A stretch of 59,482 nt of DNA from NCBI GenBank assembly GCA_964465205.1, contig CAYXJO010000009.1, forward strand, positions 1 through 59,482. Reading direction: 5' to 3'. The notes under the pieces are model-generated. The model saw only the letters and a list, made by a program, of their open reading frames with translations. It was not told where the DNA came from and did not search any database. Source of the stretch: an uncultured Gammaproteobacteria bacterium (GTDB lineage: Bacteria > Patescibacteriota > Patescibacteriia > Magasanikbacterales > GWA2-37-8). Position numbers and translations under genes: made by a program. This document shows, piece after piece, positions 3 to 19,665 of this stretch; the stretch's first letter is position 1, and each line of letters starts with the position of its first letter.

Positions 3-407
3 CAGGGGATCGGTGTCCGCTTGCTTTACCACCCAGCCGGCATAACCCTTGACATACATAATGTTCTGCACGAAAAACTGCAGGACTATTTGGAAGAGCG
101 CGATAAATGCGGCATTACGACTCCGTATCTCTGGGTGTCGGATAAAGGCAAAAACAGCCGCCTTGAAAAAAGCGGCTATGACCACTTAATGAAGCGTATC
201 CGCGAAGCTAGCGGAGTGAAATTCCATCCGCACCAATTCCGGCACACATTCGCCGCCAACCTCGCCAACAAAGGCGTAGCCATGCCGACGCTTAAGCAAT
301 TGATGGGGCACAGATCTATGAGTATGACGCTTAAATATCTCCGCTATGTGCCGCAAAAGATGATGGCCGCCGGAATAGAAAAACTTGATTTGGACGATCT
401 GCTTTAA
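3..407 (+). CDS. Tyrosine recombinase, C-terminal catalytic part (frame open to the window edge, 5' partial)
   Basis: HPHQFRHTFA (HxxR), LMGH and TLKYL (catalytic Tyr) motifs; frame 3 has no stop upstream of position 21. Confidence 0.85.
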   Translation, partial: QGIGVRLLYHPAGITLDIHNVLHEKLQDYLEERDKCGITTPYLWVSDKGKNSRLEKSGYDHLMKRIREASGVKFHPHQFRHTFAANLANKGVAMPTLKQLMGHRSMSMTLKYLRYVPQKMMAAGIEKLDLDDLL

Positions 408-1297
408 AGATTGTTTAACGGATGCTTGATTATCTGCGAGCGCAAATGTTCGGCGGTGGCAGACAAATAAATGGTGGTGGTTTTTATGTCGCTATGCCCG
501 AGCATGCGCGAGAGCGAGTAAATATCGCACCCGCCTTCCAAAAGTAAAGTCGCAAAAGTATGCCGCAATTTGTGGAGAGTAAAATCAATGCCGCTTTCCT
601 TTCTCATCTTTTCTGCCAGCCGCTTAATCCCTATATCCCTAAATCCCATATTGCGGTTCATGGAAGTGAAAAACTCGGGGCAGGTTTTATTGAGGCGCTT
701 GCGCTCTCCCAGATATCTCTGCAGACTGTCCGCCAGCCGGTAAGGGATCGGGATGATTCTGTCCTTGCTGCCTTTGCCCTGTCTGACGAACAGCGTCATA
801 TTTTCCAAATCAACATCGGCCAGTTTCAAATTAAGCAGTTCGCGCTTGCGCAATCCGGCAAACAGGAAGGTGGCAAAGATCGCATGGTTGCGGTAGCGCA
901 GGAAATGGTAATCGTAAGGATAATTGTACACCACTTCCAAAAGCCGCAGCGCGTCCTGTTTGGTAAGCTTGGACGGCAGGCGCTTCTCCAAACGCGGCAC
1001 CTCGATGTCCTCAACGAAATTCTCCTGCATGTGTTTATTCTTAATGCACCATCTGAAGAAAACTCCCAGCGTCTTATGGTAAGCGATAAAAGTATTGGCG
1101 GTCCACTGCCTGGCGGTGCGCCCGTAAAAGAACAATTCCTTTACCATGTTGGCGGTAATCTGCATCGTATCGGTAATGCCGGCATGGCGGCTGAAGAAAG
1201 ATATCACTTGCCGGTAGCGACGCAAGGTCATGGGCTTGAGGCCCTTGATGTAGCGCGCGTGGTCGCAAAACTCGCGCAACAATATTTGAATATCCAT
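404..1297 (-). CDS. Tyrosine recombinase/integrase (XerC/XerD-like)
   Basis: Full catalytic set: GLRKREL, GKGSKDR, HKLRHTFA, LGHSD, TTIYL; N-terminal SAM-like domain. Confidence 0.93.
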   Translation of the reverse strand: MDIQILLREFCDHARYIKGLKPMTLRRYRQVISFFSRHAGITDTMQITANMVKELFFYGRTARQWTANTFIAYHKTLGVFFRWCIKNKHMQENFVEDIEVPRLEKRLPSKLTKQDALRLLEVVYNYPYDYHFLRYRNHAIFATFLFAGLRKRELLNLKLADVDLENMTLFVRQGKGSKDRIIPIPYRLADSLQRYLGERKRLNKTCPEFFTSMNRNMGFRDIGIKRLAEKMRKESGIDFTLHKLRHTFATLLLEGGCDIYSLSRMLGHSDIKTTTIYLSATAEHLRSQIIKHPLNNL

Positions 1298-1302
1298 ATA
1301 AC

Positions 1303-1332
1303 AAAAACACTACAATGTATTAGTTGCAGTGT
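1303..1332 (-). terminator. Hairpin with U-tract downstream of tRNA-Thr(UGU)
   Basis: Minus strand ACACUGCAA-CUAAUACA-UUGUAGUGU followed by UUUU. Confidence 0.55.
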
Positions 1333-1339
1333 TCACGAG

Positions 1340-1412
1340 AGCCGGGAACAGGATTCGAACCCGCGACCCGCGCTTTACAAAAGCGCTGCTCTACCAGCTG
1401 AGCTATCCCGGC
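1340..1412 (-). tRNA. tRNA-Thr(UGU), CCA not encoded
   Basis: GCCGGGATAGCTCAGCTGGTAGAGCAGCGCTTTTGTAAAGCGCGGGTCGCGGGTTCGAATCCTGTTCCCGGCT folds as a cloverleaf with anticodon TGT. Confidence 0.96.
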
Positions 1413-1469
1413 TTATGGCGGTAGCGCCTGCCGGACAGCCTGCCAGCGCGCATGGCGCTTACAATCAAG

Positions 1470-1738
1470 AGCCGTTGTCGGGACTTGAACCCGAGACCTA
1501 CTCCTTCGCTTCCACCTCTATTTCTTGTATTAGAGGGCTAGACTGTATCTTGAGCTTGTCCCGCAAGCGGGATTTAGCTCCCCTTGTCAGTCGTTCGGGC
1601 CCGCACACTGCGTGCCACGGTCTTACCCTTTGCAGGGCTTTAACCGTTATTCGGGAGACAGCATTATATTTCTACAATGCCGGGCGGAGATCAATGCGAT
1701 CCACCATGGAGTTGCTCTACCAACTGAGCTACAACGGC
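1470..1738 (-). tRNA. tRNA-Thr(GGU) interrupted by an intron; exons 1703-1738 and 1470-1506
   Basis: Joined exons give GCCGTTGTAGCTCAGTTGGTAGAGCAACTCCATGGT|AAGGAGTAGGTCTCGGGTTCAAGTCCCGACAACGGCT, a perfect 73-nt cloverleaf. Confidence 0.93.
1507..1702 (-). ncRNA. Group I self-splicing intron (196 nt, no ORF) at tRNA position 36/37
   Basis: 5' exon ends in U and intron ends in G. P7 GACUG/CAGUC within R (GAACGACUG) and S (AAGAUACAGUC) motifs; P3 CUCCC/GGGAG; P4 ACGGU/ACCGU; P2, P5, P6, P8 and P9 stems; IGS CUCCGCC. Confidence 0.9.
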
Positions 1739-1900
1739 GTAATTAAATTTGTTAAATTTCTTATGATTGTTTATAAATCTGCTTTAGCCCGCGACCTTAT
1801 TCACGGTAGCCGAGGATGTGTTTCGCTCTGGAACAAGTCCCTTCTTTCGTCTTTTTGGCTTTATTTAAGCCAAACAGGTACCTCGCCCATGCTATGTTCT

Positions 1901-1938
1901 TTACCATGGAGGTGCTCTACCAACTGAGCTACAACGGC
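1901..1938 (-). pseudogene. Orphan 5' half (positions 1-38) of tRNA-Thr(GGU)
   Basis: 37/38 identical to the spliced tRNA (A27>C); no T-arm or acceptor 3' strand follows. Confidence 0.85.
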
Positions 1939-1939
1939 A

Positions 1940-2839
1940 TTATATTTTATCTATACGATTACGGAAAACCTCTAATTTTTGGTTATCCGGATTCACCAAA
2001 CGCAATTCATTTAAATTATTTTGCGCCAGTGCTTTGTTGCCACATATTATAGCAGTTTCTATAAATAAGTCAAGATACTTGGGATTCTTGGGCTCAAGTT
2101 CCACTGCTTGTGATATGGCATCTAGCGCCACTTGGGGCTGGCCGATTTTAATCAACATTTCCGCCAAGTGAAAAAACCTCGGCGACAAAGCATCATTAAC
2201 CAAAATCGCTTGCTGATAATAATCAATCGCTTCTTCCACATCACCCTGACTTTCGGCTATTTCTGCCAACTTGACCATTACGCTATCGTCATCAGGCTCC
2301 AATTGTAACACAAATTGGAAAGTTTGCCTAGCCTCCTCAAGCGATCCTTTAGCCAAATAAACTTCGGCCAGACCGCGATAAGCCGGGGCTGATTTCTGGT
2401 CCAATTTTACCGCCTTGATATATAACTCTTCAGCGCGATCCAAGCTTTTCACCACCAAACTTTGTTCTGCTTCTACCAACAAACTATTAACTTTGGCCAC
2501 CACATCTTCAGTATTTATTTTTGCTGGCTCGGGTTGTTTTTTGGTGCTTTGTTCAAATTTCCACAAACGTTCAATCTTGCCCACATAAATTCTAAAGTTC
2601 AATTGAACAATACCAAAAATTTTACGCAGAGGAGACAAAATTTTGGCCCAACGCGCGCGTACTAATTTACTGTGTTCGTCAATACGTTTGGAAATCATTT
2701 CTTTCTTTTTGATGTTCTGTTGTTCTTCTGGTAATTGTTTTAAATTTAAATTTGCCAACTGCGGTAATTTGCGCACAACAATAAAAGCGATCACCGCCAA
2801 ACAAGATAAAATAATAATTCCAAAAACAATATTCAACAT
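1940..2839 (-). CDS. Membrane-anchored tetratricopeptide repeat protein
   Basis: N-terminal TM helix, several TPR-like helical pairs (AYRGLAEVY, FFHLAEML, ELEPKNP). Confidence 0.85.
   Translation of the reverse strand: MLNIVFGIIILSCLAVIAFIVVRKLPQLANLNLKQLPEEQQNIKKKEMISKRIDEHSKLVRARWAKILSPLRKIFGIVQLNFRIYVGKIERLWKFEQSTKKQPEPAKINTEDVVAKVNSLLVEAEQSLVVKSLDRAEELYIKAVKLDQKSAPAYRGLAEVYLAKGSLEEARQTFQFVLQLEPDDDSVMVKLAEIAESQGDVEEAIDYYQQAILVNDALSPRFFHLAEMLIKIGQPQVALDAISQAVELEPKNPKYLDLFIETAIICGNKALAQNNLNELRLVNPDNQKLEVFRNRIDKI
2046..2073 (-). promoter_or_regulatory. Sigma70-type promoter inside the TPR gene, likely driving the tRNA-Thr locus
   Basis: TTGACT-16 bp-TATAAT with an extended TG, about 100 nt upstream of the orphan tRNA half. 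Confidence 0.6.
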
Positions 2840-8923: not shown

Positions 8924-10165
8924 CTAGTGGTTTGTCACTTCTGAAGATAGGGCTTTTTGTCTATTAAATAAGCCAAAAATCAACACTGTAACCAGACACA
9001 CAATAGGTGCAAACCAAAAACCCCAAGCAAAAGCAAAATATGTCACAATAATACCGGCAACAAAAGGCCCGGAAGAGTGGCCAATATCCATAATAGCACT
9101 AAGAGCTCCCATGGAGGCACCCAAATTCTCCTTGGGGGCGATATCGCCAACATACGAATTGGTGGCCACAGTGGAAAAAGACATCCCCACACCAAACAAA
9201 ACACTAAGCGCTACGATAATGTAATAATTTACTGTTAATGGCAGCAATCCAACCGAGAGCACTAAAATACAAATACCCAAAACCACTTGCGCACGTTTGT
9301 CGATTCGATCGGCCAATTTCCCAAAAAACGGTTTGGTAAAAGCAATGGCCAAAATTTGCAAAGAAAAAATTAAACCAATCTTACTAGCGCTGTACCCATT
9401 ATCGTGCAGGTATATTGGCAAATATGTTTCTAAAATACCAAAAGTAAAATAAATCGCCATCTCCACTAGGGCCGTGGAAAGCAAGCGCGCGTGTTTTAAT
9501 AACCTACTAAACGCTTCAACAAACAATCTGAATGTAATTTTTGGTTTGTCATTTATTTTTGTTGTGTCAGATTGATTTTTTTCAAATTTTATAAACAACG
9601 AAAAAATCAGGACCGGCAGGGCCACTAACCCCGCAATCATATAAACCAAACGATAACTCCACAACCCACTTAAACCCGCAAACAATGTTAGGATCATACC
9701 ACCAAACAAAGGCGCCAAAGTACGGCCAAACAATGTAGCGGATGAATAAAAACCTAATCTTTCGCCTTTATTTTCGGGATAAGCATGAAAAATCATCGTG
9801 GCGGATAGCGGGCCCAAGATGGCAGTTGCCAATCCGTGAAAAAATCGAATCGGAATCAAAAACCACGGATTAGAAACCAACACATAAAGTAGCGGCGCTA
9901 AAACAAAAACAACCGCCGCGGCCACTAATAATTTTTTCTGTCCAATGTGATCGATTAATATACCAACCGGAAAACTAAAAACAATACCGGCCAAAGGAGA
10001 GATGGCCGCAATTAATCCCAAAATTTCATTATTGCCACCCAAATCATGTACAAATAATGGTAATACCGGATTCTTGGACATCGTGGTAGAAAAAATTCCA
10101 AAAAATCCAATCAATGAGAGCAGGTAAATCATGCGATTTGAAAATTTTGATATAATTTGTTCCAT
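8924..10165 (-). CDS. Major facilitator superfamily transporter
   Basis: About 12 TM segments, GKLADRIDKR motif A; start moved to ATG 10165 to avoid overlap with the upstream gene. Confidence 0.92.
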   Translation of the reverse strand: MEQIISKFSNRMIYLLSLIGFFGIFSTTMSKNPVLPLFVHDLGGNNEILGLIAAISPLAGIVFSFPVGILIDHIGQKKLLVAAAVVFVLAPLLYVLVSNPWFLIPIRFFHGLATAILGPLSATMIFHAYPENKGERLGFYSSATLFGRTLAPLFGGMILTLFAGLSGLWSYRLVYMIAGLVALPVLIFSLFIKFEKNQSDTTKINDKPKITFRLFVEAFSRLLKHARLLSTALVEMAIYFTFGILETYLPIYLHDNGYSASKIGLIFSLQILAIAFTKPFFGKLADRIDKRAQVVLGICILVLSVGLLPLTVNYYIIVALSVLFGVGMSFSTVATNSYVGDIAPKENLGASMGALSAIMDIGHSSGPFVAGIIVTYFAFAWGFWFAPIVCLVTVLIFGLFNRQKALSSEVTNH

Positions 10166-16669: not shown

Positions 16670-17263
16670 TTAACCTAGTTGATAATTATCCACTATCATT
16701 ACATGCTTAGATTCCAACACATTATACAAAAACTTATCACCAATTTCCCGTCTCTCATCAAACTCTTTCTTGTCCATAATAGTATAACGCACACTTAGAC
16801 TACTATTATCCTCATACTCTTTAATTAGTCGATCGACTGTGCTTGATTTAATTTTGCCTACCAATAAAATATCCGTACCCACATCAGCTACACTGGTAAA
16901 AATACCCGTCAACAAAAGCAAATCGAGCTCGCCGCCTTTTTCCTTGATACGGTTGATAAATTCTTGCTCCTCCAGCACTTGAGTTTTCACGAGTAATGCT
17001 TTCAGTTCAGGACACATTAGACATGCCTGATTAAGTTTATAGTATTTGGAACGTTCGGTGCCGGTATTCTCTACCGAGGACTTTGTTTCGACACGAGCGA
17101 GAATACCTATTAATTCCAGATTGGCTATTTCACGTCTAACGGCGTTCAGCTGTGTTTCGGCCAAACGAGCCAACTCGCGCACATATAATGCGCGCTCCGG
17201 GTAACGAAATAATATTTGCAAAAGTTTTACTCTTGTCTTTGAACCAAAAAGGTGTTCAAGCAT
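16670..17263 (-). CDS. Winged-HTH plus degenerate nucleotidyltransferase-like domain protein
   Basis: LFGSKTRVKLL...YVRELARL...NAVRREIANL HTH; LTGIF...TDILLVG; start moved to ATG 17263. Confidence 0.75.
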   Translation of the reverse strand: MLEHLFGSKTRVKLLQILFRYPERALYVRELARLAETQLNAVRREIANLELIGILARVETKSSVENTGTERSKYYKLNQACLMCPELKALLVKTQVLEEQEFINRIKEKGGELDLLLLTGIFTSVADVGTDILLVGKIKSSTVDRLIKEYEDNSSLSVRYTIMDKKEFDERREIGDKFLYNVLESKHVMIVDNYQLG

Positions 17264-17316
17264 AAATTTAAAAATTTTTTGGAAGCAAGGGTGCTCTGTG
17301 GAACACAATAATAGCG

Positions 17317-17366
17317 TTGCCCTTTTATAATAGATATAGTATAATATGAGCAAAGCAAAAAGTCAA
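17317..17366. promoter_or_regulatory. Overlapping divergent sigma70 promoters
   Basis: Plus strand TTGCCC-17-TATAAT (17317-17345); minus strand TTGACT-17-TATACT (17366-17338). Confidence 0.6.
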
Positions 17367-17370
17367 AAAT

Positions 17371-19665
17371 ATGTCCGACAACATCTTGCGCCTTAATGAA
17401 TTTTTTGTCGAAGGCAAAGATCAGCAAAAATCGCATGTTTTGCTACATATTACCGAACCGGCCACACCCGAAGAAAAAGCCAAGGGTTATTTTTTTGCTG
17501 TCTGCGAGATAAACAACGCCACCACCGAAACCATAGTAAAACTACAAGAAATTATTGACGAAATCGAAAACAGTTATTATGAAATTGATGATAATGCCAA
17601 CCAGACCGCATTGGAACCCGTATTGCAAAAAGTCAATCAATATAGCTTTTCATTAATCAAACCAGGTGTCAAATTAAGTTGTGTTCTAGGGATAATACGA
17701 CAAAATGACATTGTCTTTTCATTTTACGGCTCGCCACAGATGGTGTTGTTCTACAAAAACAAGGCCGGAATATACCAAAAAATGGATCTGATCCAACTAA
17801 ACGCTCCCGAAGCCGACGAACCTACAACTTTGCAATTATTCCCGCAAGTAATCCAGGGTAAAATTAGTCCCAATGATTATTTATTTGTAGGCAGCGGCAA
17901 TATTACCAATTATTTCAATCTGGATAGATTAGAAAAAATTATCACTACGCGCCCAGCACGTCAAAGCGCAGAACATTTGGAACATGTGCTTTCTGAGCTC
18001 AAAAACGGCTGGTCGTTTGGCGGCTTAATCATCAACTTACAACCCGCTCCGGAACGCAATATTCACGACAAACACGTTTCTCCGGCCAAAAAGGGTGGTT
18101 CGGCCAAATCTCTCCATGCCTTTTTTGATACCGAAAAAAATACTGCCAACATATTATCCCCTTCACTATTATCGCATTTTAATGAAAAACAAAAACACGG
18201 CAGACCCACAGACCCACCTGTTGAAACCGAAGAAACAAATATACGTTATCCTCAAACAGTAATCAGTTCTACTCATCTACGTCAACACAAAACCGAATTT
18301 CGTCACAAAGACCAAAATGTGGACTATCGTGAAATTACATTACAGATTCTAAACTTTCTCAAAACCGCAACCATCGGATTATTACGTGCGCTCACTTGGA
18401 TCGTATTGGCTATCTGGGCGACAATAGTGGGCATTGCTAGATTTTTGGGGATACTATTTTTTCTGGCCACTAATTACCAAAATCGACGCGCCCTAATAAT
18501 GGATAATCTACGCCGACAATGGCGATCATACATTATATACATAAAACAACTGCCGTTAATTACCAAAATATTACTAATAGTGGCAACTCTGACAATCGCG
18601 ATATTTATCGTTAGTATCAGTTATATTAACTTCAGTCGCCAAAGAGCAGTTGCACTCCGCCTATTCAACGAAGGTATCGTAACCATCAAAAACAAAAAAG
18701 ATGCCGCCGAAAGCGCTTTGATTTATAATAATGAACCAGCCGCTATTACCGAACTCCAAGGAGCTCGAGATATTTATAATAAAATTTGTGATAAAACCAA
18801 AGATGACAATAAGGATTGCGCAGGTATCAAGGAACAATTGGATAATTTAGCCGTGCGCCTACGCAAAGAATTAGTTGCCCAACCCAAAATGCTACTTGAT
18901 ATTAATTCCTTTAATATCAACTCTAAAAATAGCCAAATCGTTAAAGTTGGTAATAAAATCTTAGCCTACAGCACCTCTTCTGAGATATTAGTGCAATATG
19001 ATACTGTATCCAAAGAAAGCCGCACAGTTAGTACCACTATCAATGTGGACGGATTTACCAATGCTGCGGTGCCCAAAGAAAACGATTTCGGATTATTGCT
19101 TTATCAAAATAAAAATTTAGCTCGTTTTGATGCCAAAGACGGAACAATTAAGACAATAGAAGTTGGATATGCCAACGACAAAGCAAACATCACCGCTCTA
19201 TTAGTATACAATCGTCGTCTTTATACACTTGACCCTGAACATAATCAAATTTATAAACATGACGTAATAAAAACCGGTTATGGTCGCGGCAATGAATGGG
19301 TAAAAGATACGGGTATAGATTTATCTAACAGTATTGATATCACAATTGACGGCGACGTATTCGTACTGAAAAATAACGGTGAAATTCTAAAATTTAACGC
19401 CGGGGAAAAACAAATATTTAGTGTACAGGGTGTAGAACCGGCGCTCGATAGTGCAACTAAAATTTGGACTTACACCGATTTGCAATATTTATACGTACTG
19501 GACGCTACCAATCAGCGTTTGGTGATTTTGTATAAAGACGGCCGTATCAAACAACAAATCACCGCTAAAGAATGGATTAACCCTACCGGCATGGTAGTAG
19601 ACGAACCCAATAATATCGCTTACATTCTCGATAATAACAAACTATACCAGGTAGCTTTGAAATAA
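17371..19665 (+). CDS. Large membrane protein: PP2C-like N-terminus, TM segments, C-terminal beta-propeller
   Basis: 764 aa; central hydrophobic helices; NHL-like repeats (DITIDGDVFVL, YVLDATNQRLV, PTGMVVD). Confidence 0.7.
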   Translation: MSDNILRLNEFFVEGKDQQKSHVLLHITEPATPEEKAKGYFFAVCEINNATTETIVKLQEIIDEIENSYYEIDDNANQTALEPVLQKVNQYSFSLIKPGVKLSCVLGIIRQNDIVFSFYGSPQMVLFYKNKAGIYQKMDLIQLNAPEADEPTTLQLFPQVIQGKISPNDYLFVGSGNITNYFNLDRLEKIITTRPARQSAEHLEHVLSELKNGWSFGGLIINLQPAPERNIHDKHVSPAKKGGSAKSLHAFFDTEKNTANILSPSLLSHFNEKQKHGRPTDPPVETEETNIRYPQTVISSTHLRQHKTEFRHKDQNVDYREITLQILNFLKTATIGLLRALTWIVLAIWATIVGIARFLGILFFLATNYQNRRALIMDNLRRQWRSYIIYIKQLPLITKILLIVATLTIAIFIVSISYINFSRQRAVALRLFNEGIVTIKNKKDAAESALIYNNEPAAITELQGARDIYNKICDKTKDDNKDCAGIKEQLDNLAVRLRKELVAQPKMLLDINSFNINSKNSQIVKVGNKILAYSTSSEILVQYDTVSKESRTVSTTINVDGFTNAAVPKENDFGLLLYQNKNLARFDAKDGTIKTIEVGYANDKANITALLVYNRRLYTLDPEHNQIYKHDVIKTGYGRGNEWVKDTGIDLSNSIDITIDGDVFVLKNNGEILKFNAGEKQIFSVQGVEPALDSATKIWTYTDLQYLYVLDATNQRLVILYKDGRIKQQITAKEWINPTGMVVDEPNNIAYILDNNKLYQVALK

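Follow-up and report, generated by a model that had tools for sequence, protein, structure and literature searches.

An orphan tRNA-Thr(GGU) half in a Patescibacteria contig is probably the left junction of an island that splits the gene and brings its own copy

Classical islands that target tRNA genes bring along the 3′ portion of the tRNA, by which the gene is restored (the Islander rule, PMC4383910). In the tRNA-dependent lysogeny of actinobacteriophages (Fionnbharth, Cluster L, Gaia; Guerrero-Bustamante & Hatfull 2024, PMC10865867), the core is short, no functional tRNA remains at attL, and the loss is complemented by an isotype-matched tRNA of the phage. Disruption of a tRNA gene by mobile-element integration has also been modelled for the archaeon Caldiarchaeum subterraneum (PMC3293823, as summarised in PMC4390854), and a protective role has been suggested for archaeal tRNA introns (the Randau-Soll idea, PMC4390854). 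Here we analysed contig CAYXJO010000009.1 of assembly GCA_964465205.1, a stretch of 59,482 nt that we call the window, in which the 5′ half of a tRNA-Thr(GGU) gene stands alone upstream of a complete, intron-containing tRNA-Thr(GGU) gene and of two tyrosine recombinase genes, int1 and int2 (Table 1). We consider it very probable that this orphan half marks the left junction (attL) of an island that integrated site-specifically.

The orphan, read on the minus strand from 1938 to 1903, has the sequence GCCGTTGTAGCTCAGTTGGTAGAGCACCTCCATGGT and matches exon 1 of the intron-containing gene (1703–1738, minus strand) at 35 of 36 positions, the sole change being C27 in the orphan against A27 in exon 1. 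It reads GGT-AA, as an intron-less gene does, while the split gene instead runs from GGT into the intron (GGT/GGATCGC), so that the repeat with one change and an intron-less junction described by the original prediction is confirmed. The two copies lie in direct orientation 200 bp apart with unrelated flanks on either side, and a third copy of the tRNA-Thr 5′ half was not found in the 59-kb window. After ATGGTAA the window continues with AGAACATAGC, which supplies no 3′ anticodon stem; no tRNA was called at the junction, and in a permissive Rfam search the two 5′ halves matched tRNA only below the threshold. An assembly artefact that duplicated the fragment, which the original prediction had named as a possible refutation, has nothing in its favour beyond the existence of the repeat, and is contradicted by the one difference within the 36-nt repeat, by the 162 unique bases between the copies and by the same architecture in independent assemblies from different samples and pipelines; its probability is negligible.

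Relatives were collected by a search with the neighbouring triose-phosphate isomerase (TPI), which gave 42 syntenic loci, mostly from Candidatus Magasanikbacteria and other Patescibacteria (candidate phyla radiation, CPR), with a protein identity of at most 70%; exact-protein look-ups with the TPR-repeat protein, TPI and int1 of the window matched no record. In these 42 loci a tRNA cluster follows the TPR gene, and where TPI is most similar (L001, L003, L005 and L007) the order is TPR, tRNA-Thr(GGU), tRNA-Thr(UGU) and tRNA-Tyr, with tRNA-Trp ∼1 kb further on in three. Comparison across relatives, the check that had been proposed for this locus, showed that element-free ones have an intact intron-less tRNA-Thr(GGU) at the place of the orphan. 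Window 2096–1898 aligns unbroken with the 3′ end of the TPR gene and the first ∼40 nt of the native tRNA in L001, L003 and L007, and all 36 nt of 1903–1938, including C27, are those of the native tRNA-Thr(GGU) 5′ half in L001, L009 and L010. Synteny breaks at the core: similarity to relatives ends at ∼1897, in the anticodon loop, after ATGGTAA. From there on GC content rises from 42% in the host to 50–54% in the inserted DNA, and the 162-nt spacer and both recombinase genes have no counterpart in the 42 element-free syntenic loci. Taken together, the native position, the allele shared with relatives and the stop of similarity at the anticodon loop argue strongly that the orphan is the host's own gene, cut in the anticodon loop, and that the window DNA to the left of it is all inserted.

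The same layout, a 5′ half with ATGGTAA, an A/T-R-AAC arm, a spacer, a complete tRNA-Thr(GGU) and an int1 homolog, was present in seven other loci (L183, L081/L138 from one species, L269, L393, L394, L395 and L398). L183 is collinear with the window through TPR, orphan, spacer and intron gene to an int1 that is 76% identical. L269, L393, L394, L395 and L398 were found through int1 homologs and carry cargo such as restriction-modification systems; L270 and L271, in which the site has no tRNA half and an int2-like gene points at it, were found in the same way. Among the intron matches listed, four loci have an extra upstream copy of exon 1 (L183, L081, L138 and L076, in the last of which it is a second complete intron-less gene). 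The tRNA half and the gene are spaced by 153–197 bp in homologous loci, so the spacing of exactly 200 bp to which the original prediction drew attention has no special meaning. The host TPR proteins are diverged, that of the window being 58% identical to its counterpart in L183 and 32% to that in L081; the intact gene without an island is seen in many relatives of comparable or greater similarity, and the orphans differ among themselves only where working tRNAs vary. Most simply, site-specific insertion would have struck the same target several times, in place of a single ancient duplication. If the 5′ part of the gene had been duplicated locally in tandem and had then decayed, with no role for the integrases, two direct copies 200 bp apart would be accounted for, but the copies share no flanking sequence on either side, the spacer does not derive by decay from an intron or upstream region, and the break at the same nucleotide with the same conserved arm recurs in the seven other loci in different hosts, always linked to int1. 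We therefore regard simple duplication, also foreseen as a refutation, as highly improbable.

One locus, L395, shows both ends of an island. At its left junction the host 5′ half is followed by ATGGTAA (9768) and TAAACAGGTC, and then by the island's own tRNA-Thr(GGU), int1, cargo and an int2-like gene; at the right junction, ...CAGGTTC is followed by ATGGTAA (17972), a tRNA 3′ half and then host genes. The island is 8.2 kb long with a common core of 7 bp, and its two orphan halves, when joined in silico, form a perfect cloverleaf tRNA-Thr(GGU). Moreover, the circle predicted from L395 (int2-like gene, attP, spacer, tRNA, int1) has the exact arrangement found in L112, L270 and L271.

These loci fall into site types that share the heptamer. 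In the attL type, including L183 and L081, a tRNA 5′ half precedes it; in the attP type (L095, L112, L270 and L271) an inverted repeat, CTGTTyN-ATGGTAA-nRAACAG, stands without any tRNA half before the module of spacer, tRNA and int1. Among the matches listed, ATGGTAA occurs at most 250 nt upstream of the gene in 5/5 int1-linked loci and in 1/106 others, where it is part of a complete tRNA, and in every int1-linked intron locus with upstream sequence it is found together with an A/T-R-AAC-like arm 123–169 nt upstream of the gene. The C′ arm and a second motif, box 2 (Table 1), recur in L081, L095, L112, L269, L270, L393, L394, L395 and L398. Beyond the core the arm retains at most a degenerate A/T-R-AAC-AGGTC, with no T arm and no acceptor strand. 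Box 2 has the consensus AAnnGGTCryGGGC, stands 25–45 nt upstream of the element tRNA in nearly all loci and repeats AACAGGTC of the core-adjacent arm; it may serve the recombinase as a binding site, act as a promoter element or be left over from a tRNA. The repeated AGGTC motifs may be arm-type sites, although int1 has no arm-binding domain.

In the mechanism that we propose, a mobile island with the Xer-like int1 would have recombined with the host's intron-less tRNA-Thr(GGU), with strand exchange inside the 7-bp ATGGTAA of the anticodon loop, and we infer that int1 catalysed the integration. The island att site would share with the tRNA just this core and the degenerate A/T-R-AAC-AGGTC, and with so short a shared core the host gene would be split and not rebuilt. 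The host 5′ half would remain beside the TPR gene (1908–1938), and the host 3′ half is expected at the far end of the island, past the left edge of the window, as in L395; the attR of the window's island would thus lie outside the window. The island would bring a complete tRNA-Thr(GGU) ∼160 bp inside its left end, here with a group I intron predicted to be self-splicing, and this tRNA would take over, probably driven by the host tRNA promoter reading through the orphan half; it is presumably needed and expressed.

The original prediction had proposed that the orphan is the relic of an ancestral intron-less gene displaced by gene replacement next to an integrase and not by homing, and this part, together with the break in the anticodon loop, agrees with the island reading; the part that finds no support is its cassette of a 5′ exon and intron joined to a native 3′ exon. 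Taken literally, the 162 nt, a new 5′ exon and the intron would have recombined into the anticodon loop and the present gene would be chimeric, with a native 3′ exon. The break at the anticodon loop and the nearby integrase are compatible with this, but the orphan's C27 would find no partner in U43 of exon 2 as it now stands, while the intron gene has a matched A27-U43 pair, a 3′ half follows the element tRNA in no locus, the native 3′ half of L395 is 8 kb off at attR, and the module of spacer, complete tRNA and int1 also stands behind attP-type sites that have no host tRNA half. We think it very unlikely. Because the A27-U43 pair and the T arm would belong to an incoming complete gene, the C27/U43 mismatch that had been noted as a caveat is removed.

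L393 has two tandem orphan 5′ halves at 9361–9551, each with ATGGTAA and the arm, before an intron-bearing tRNA-Thr(GGU) and int1. Such tandem orphans would be explained by a non-autonomous mini-element of ∼200 bp, composed of the arm and a 5′ half, inserted in the host gene, so that the gene would consist of a 5′ half from the element and a 3′ half from the host, with int1 being part of another island. The attP-type sites, however, precede the same spacer, tRNA and int1 module without any 5′ half, and in L395 the host 3′ half lies beyond int1 and the cargo, not right after the element tRNA. A 200-bp circle is, moreover, an implausible recombination substrate, and we give the mini-element very little credence. 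By the island reading, the tandem orphans of L393 would be the expected leftover of a second insertion into the replacement tRNA of the first island.

Several points weigh against the proposed integration. The window ends inside int2, so that its own attR and displaced 3′ half lie out of view, and both ends are seen in L395 alone; in L267 (an extension of L183), L269, L393 and L394, no attR-type site, with a non-tRNA arm, ATGGTAA and a 3′ half, was found in the 10 kb downstream of int1. The int2 gene is convergent with int1 in the window and in L183, unlike L395 and the attP-type loci, and this arrangement is unexplained, as is the tRNA-Thr(UGU) gene, which lies between the intron gene and int1 in the window only.

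Table 1. Features of the tRNA-Thr(GGU) junction and its surroundings in the window
Feature	Position	Strand	Basis
TPR-repeat protein gene of the host, last syntenic host gene before the break	1940..2839	-	Pfam TPR families; homologs precede tRNA-Thr in 40+ related loci
Putative host tRNA-cluster promoter TTGACT-16-TGcTATAAT, inside the TPR 3′ end	2046..2073	-	Pattern scan, 11/12 matches and upstream TG
Orphan 5′ half of the host intron-less tRNA-Thr(GGU), tRNA positions 1-31, probable host (B) arm of attL	1908..1938	-	Collinear with TPR 3′ end and tRNA in L001, L003, L007
ATGGTAA, anticodon loop of tRNA-Thr(GGU), 7-bp common core, putative strand-exchange site	1901..1907	-	Only sequence common to attL-type, attP-type and attR sites
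Element arm (162-nt spacer), starting with C′ arm AGAAC (1900-1896); box 2 AATAAGGTCGCGGGC at 1787-1801	1739..1900	-	No similarity in 42 element-free relatives
Element-borne tRNA-Thr(GGU): exon 1 1703-1738, intron 1507-1702 (196 nt), exon 2 1470-1506	1470..1738	-	Folds, once spliced, as a canonical tRNA-Thr(GGU) cloverleaf
tRNA-Thr(UGU), inside the inserted block between intron gene and int1	1340..1412	-	ARAGORN, Rfam
Intrinsic-terminator-like hairpin and T run, putative end of the tRNA transcript	1305..1334	-	Sole terminator-like site; after tRNA-Thr(UGU)
int1, intact Xer-like tyrosine recombinase, 297 aa, putative integrase	404..1297	-	PF00589 3.6e-29; PDB XerC-like 4a8e 1e-30
int2, C-terminal part of a second tyrosine recombinase, cut by the window edge	3..407	+	Pfam PF00589; convergent with int1, abuts directly

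The promoter proposed by the original prediction, TTGACT-16-TATAAT at 2073–2046, was recovered by the pattern scan, and its -35/-10 pair is kept at the DNA level in 40/47 related loci. A 44-nt stretch of the TPR 3′ end (2046–2089, minus strand; CCCAAGTATCTTGACTT...TGCTATAATATGTGG) is conserved in DNA far above the rest of the gene in 40/47 loci, and looks like an embedded promoter for the downstream tRNA cluster. Because the only terminator-like site (1334–1305) comes after tRNA-Thr(UGU), co-transcription of the orphan, the intron gene and tRNA-Thr(UGU), as originally supposed, is plausible. Such co-transcription would also suit a functional role of the half tRNA as an alternative 5′ exon or as a decoy for the intron guide, the second reading of the original prediction, since any GGU can pair with the GCC guide of the intron. 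However, like orphan halves precede intron-less tRNAs in L269, L394, L395 and L398, and the orphans are therefore independent of the intron. Moreover, the orphan is not followed by the P1 extension hairpin that stands after the true splice site in each of the 55 introns compared, the product would have a C27/U43 mismatch, and the fold of the 162-nt spacer is not significant (z = -1.09; 34 of 200 shuffles fold as well). The hairpins once pointed out in the spacer are thus no better than chance, the spacer has no similarity to the intron or upstream region, and an exon or decoy function is a most improbable explanation of the orphan.

Two further loci bear on the use of this tRNA. In L076 (2512–2892), an intron-less tRNA-Thr(GGU) stands right after TPR and an intron-containing copy after the UGU and Tyr genes; a lineage can therefore hold two GGU genes at two positions. 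In L022, the complete gene is followed after 35 nt by an orphan piece of tRNA-Thr(GGU) (9771–9807) that runs from the variable loop through to the 3′ end; this is a fragment of the classical displaced kind, and conventional islands therefore also hit the same tRNA.

The window shows only the two recombinase genes of the island. In all comparable loci the element tRNA is followed directly on its 3′ side by an int1 homolog (55–76% identity), and such a homolog directly follows the intron gene in L183, L091, L112, L095 and L081/L138. The family is very large and unusually well conserved, with 2107 homologs at E<=1e-40, many of them 65–76% identical, from CPR and non-CPR genomes of up to 5.2 Mb; searches for close relatives gave at best 31% identity in IMG/VR and 32% in INPHARED, and none in PLSDB. 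Neighbouring cargo of the family includes type I, type III and MmeI-like restriction-modification systems, a DNA methylase, RadC and ArdC/TraG. In the L183 genome, a diversity-generating retroelement (reverse transcriptase and bAvd) was seen ∼6 kb downstream of int1 (L267, 16595–18004). In L392 (9898–9971), it is a tRNA-Thr(CGU), not GGU, that stands before an int1 homolog (68%), and the same AAACAGGTCATGGG box again lies immediately 5′ of this tRNA; the int1 family may have switched between threonine isoacceptors. Homologs of int2 were found in L183, L095 and L112 and at the right end of the L395 island (16848–17789), beside attR. In L395, L112, L270 and L271 the homolog is at the opposite island end and points outward at the attachment site; in L183 it is convergent with int1, as in the window, and broken into two reading frames. 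The arrangement in the window may be that of a rearranged or decayed island.

The replacement gene of the window is split between positions 36 and 37 of the tRNA, and neither ARAGORN nor Rfam called it. Group I introns are known from the anticodon loops of bacterial tRNA genes, namely cyanobacterial tRNA-Leu(UAA) and tRNA-fMet, Azoarcus tRNA-Ile and Agrobacterium tRNA-Arg. An intron homologous to that of the window is present in L004 and L016, and a pattern scan for the exon-intron junction located the same intron in at least 120 metagenome loci (L067–L186), in many tRNA-Thr(GGU) backgrounds; lengths among the metagenome matches listed are 176–240 nt. Among 55 diverse copies that were aligned, P1 is formed by exon GGU and intron GCC, with a U.G at the 5′ splice site in 54, 30 of 49 consensus pairs show at least two canonical pair types, and a helix GACUG/CAGUC is invariant. 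The intron ends in ...AGCG, with a terminal G, in the window, L004 and L016. Rfam RF00028 (group I) gave no match on 1250–2150 even at E<=10; nevertheless, these features argue firmly that the 196-nt insert is a group I intron, predicted to be self-splicing, that RF00028 fails to detect. Its core motifs (CCCGAATAnCGGTTAA, CGAACGACTGACAAGGG and GATACAGTCT) recur in ∼20 introns that interrupt protein genes on phage contigs (IMG/VR, L044–L065), which suggests that phage genes and CPR tRNA genes share one intron family; L057 and L064 have two such phage-gene introns each, ∼470 bp apart. The literature searched made no mention of a tRNA-Thr(GGU) group I intron in CPR. In L140 and L135, the sequence before ...GGTAGAGC....CCATGGT/intron is not a tRNA 5′ end, and these matches may be relics of intron-containing genes; L140 has a complete intron-less tRNA-Thr(GGU) 94 nt upstream of the pattern match.

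L183 has no tRNA-Thr(UGU) at the place corresponding to that of the window. The window UGU gene is 73–78% identical to the UGU genes of L001, L003–L005, L007 and L008 (TPI 61–70%) and 88–92% identical to those of L006, L021, L017, L022 and L024 (TPI 50–64%). This pattern points to a foreign origin of the full tRNA genes, but L006, with comparable TPI and a good match, makes it not decisive. Right after the intron gene, in a 53-nt linker of 62% GC, window 1454–1469 (minus strand; CTTGATTGTAAGCGCC) resembles the anticodon loop and 3′ stem of tRNA-Thr(UGU) (TTTTGTAAAGCGC), a likeness that may be due to chance or to what is left of another attachment site.

The complete tRNA has no intron in L269, L270, L271, L394, L395 and L398, and the intron is therefore not part of the mechanism; the idea that it is a necessary part of the module, avoiding self-targeting, was rejected on the basis of these six loci. 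A more tentative possibility, which we think doubtful but not implausible, is that an intron within the crossover core (ATGGT/AA) confers insertion immunity, on host genes and on the island's own replacement tRNA. Because the intron splits the core, an intron-bearing tRNA-Thr(GGU) could not be an attachment site for the int1 family or for the many phages that use the same loop. All orphan halves seen (9/9) come from intron-less genes, and in L393 an intron-less replacement gene would itself have been split by a second insertion, with the chain ending at an intron-bearing copy. This support is consistent but thin and circumstantial.

If the orphan is attL of an integrated island, an odd half gene has an ordinary mechanical cause. 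The strategy of splitting the tRNA and bringing one's own copy, described in 2024 in mycobacteriophages, would then also be that of a very large family of islands with Xer-like integrases in CPR and other uncultured bacteria, which often carry restriction-modification cargo. The comparison with relatives supports that the only complete tRNA-Thr(GGU) of the locus is now intron-bearing through gene replacement, not through homing into a resident gene, and a genome can thus gain an intron-containing tRNA gene in this way. Neither the split gene nor the scar is picked up by annotation pipelines, so that tRNA-Thr(GGU) would look absent from such genomes. The locus also gives a concrete and testable example for the long-standing proposal that introns in tRNA genes shield them from integrating elements.

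Compared with the described systems, the window locus stands closest to tRNA-dependent lysogeny: it appears to combine a tyrosine integrase, an attB that overlaps the host tRNA gene at the anticodon loop, a short core and an element-borne tRNA, the tRNA is not rebuilt at attL, and a complete tRNA-Thr(GGU) lies 162 nt inside the junction, as one does in the seven other loci. It differs in its hosts (CPR and other uncultured bacteria), in its target, tRNA-Thr(GGU), and in its integrase, which is short (297 aa), Xer-like and from a very large family. Homologous islands carry restriction-modification, methylase and integrative and conjugative element (ICE)-like genes, not phage genes; the replacement tRNA is always 100–170 bp from the core, between core and int, and has a group I intron in the window and five other loci. 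Dependence of the host on the element tRNA is a prediction here.

With classical islands and prophages the locus shares tyrosine integrases that cross over in the anticodon loop, where the anticodon stem provides a natural inverted repeat, and tRNA-Thr(GGU) is a commonly used target: 37 of ∼120 fetched tRNA-Thr 3′-half matches in IMG/VR were classical phage att sites. Those islands restore the gene and displace a 3′ fragment, whereas in the window locus the gene is not restored and the orphan in view is a 5′ half. The Caldiarchaeum case is archaeal, with protein-spliced introns and split tRNAs; the present one is bacterial, with a group I intron (predicted self-splicing) and fragments that are not reused. 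The bacterial group I introns of tRNA genes (reviewed in PMC3984707) are likewise small, lack an open reading frame and sit in the anticodon loop, with a U before the 5′ splice site in the P1 U.G pair and exons that form the anticodon stem. The present intron differs in lying in tRNA-Thr(GGU) at 36/37, in core motifs common to introns of phage protein genes, and in being invisible to RF00028. The insertion-immunity reading, if true, would be a bacterial, ribozyme-based counterpart of the protection that Randau and Soll envisaged for archaeal tRNA introns.

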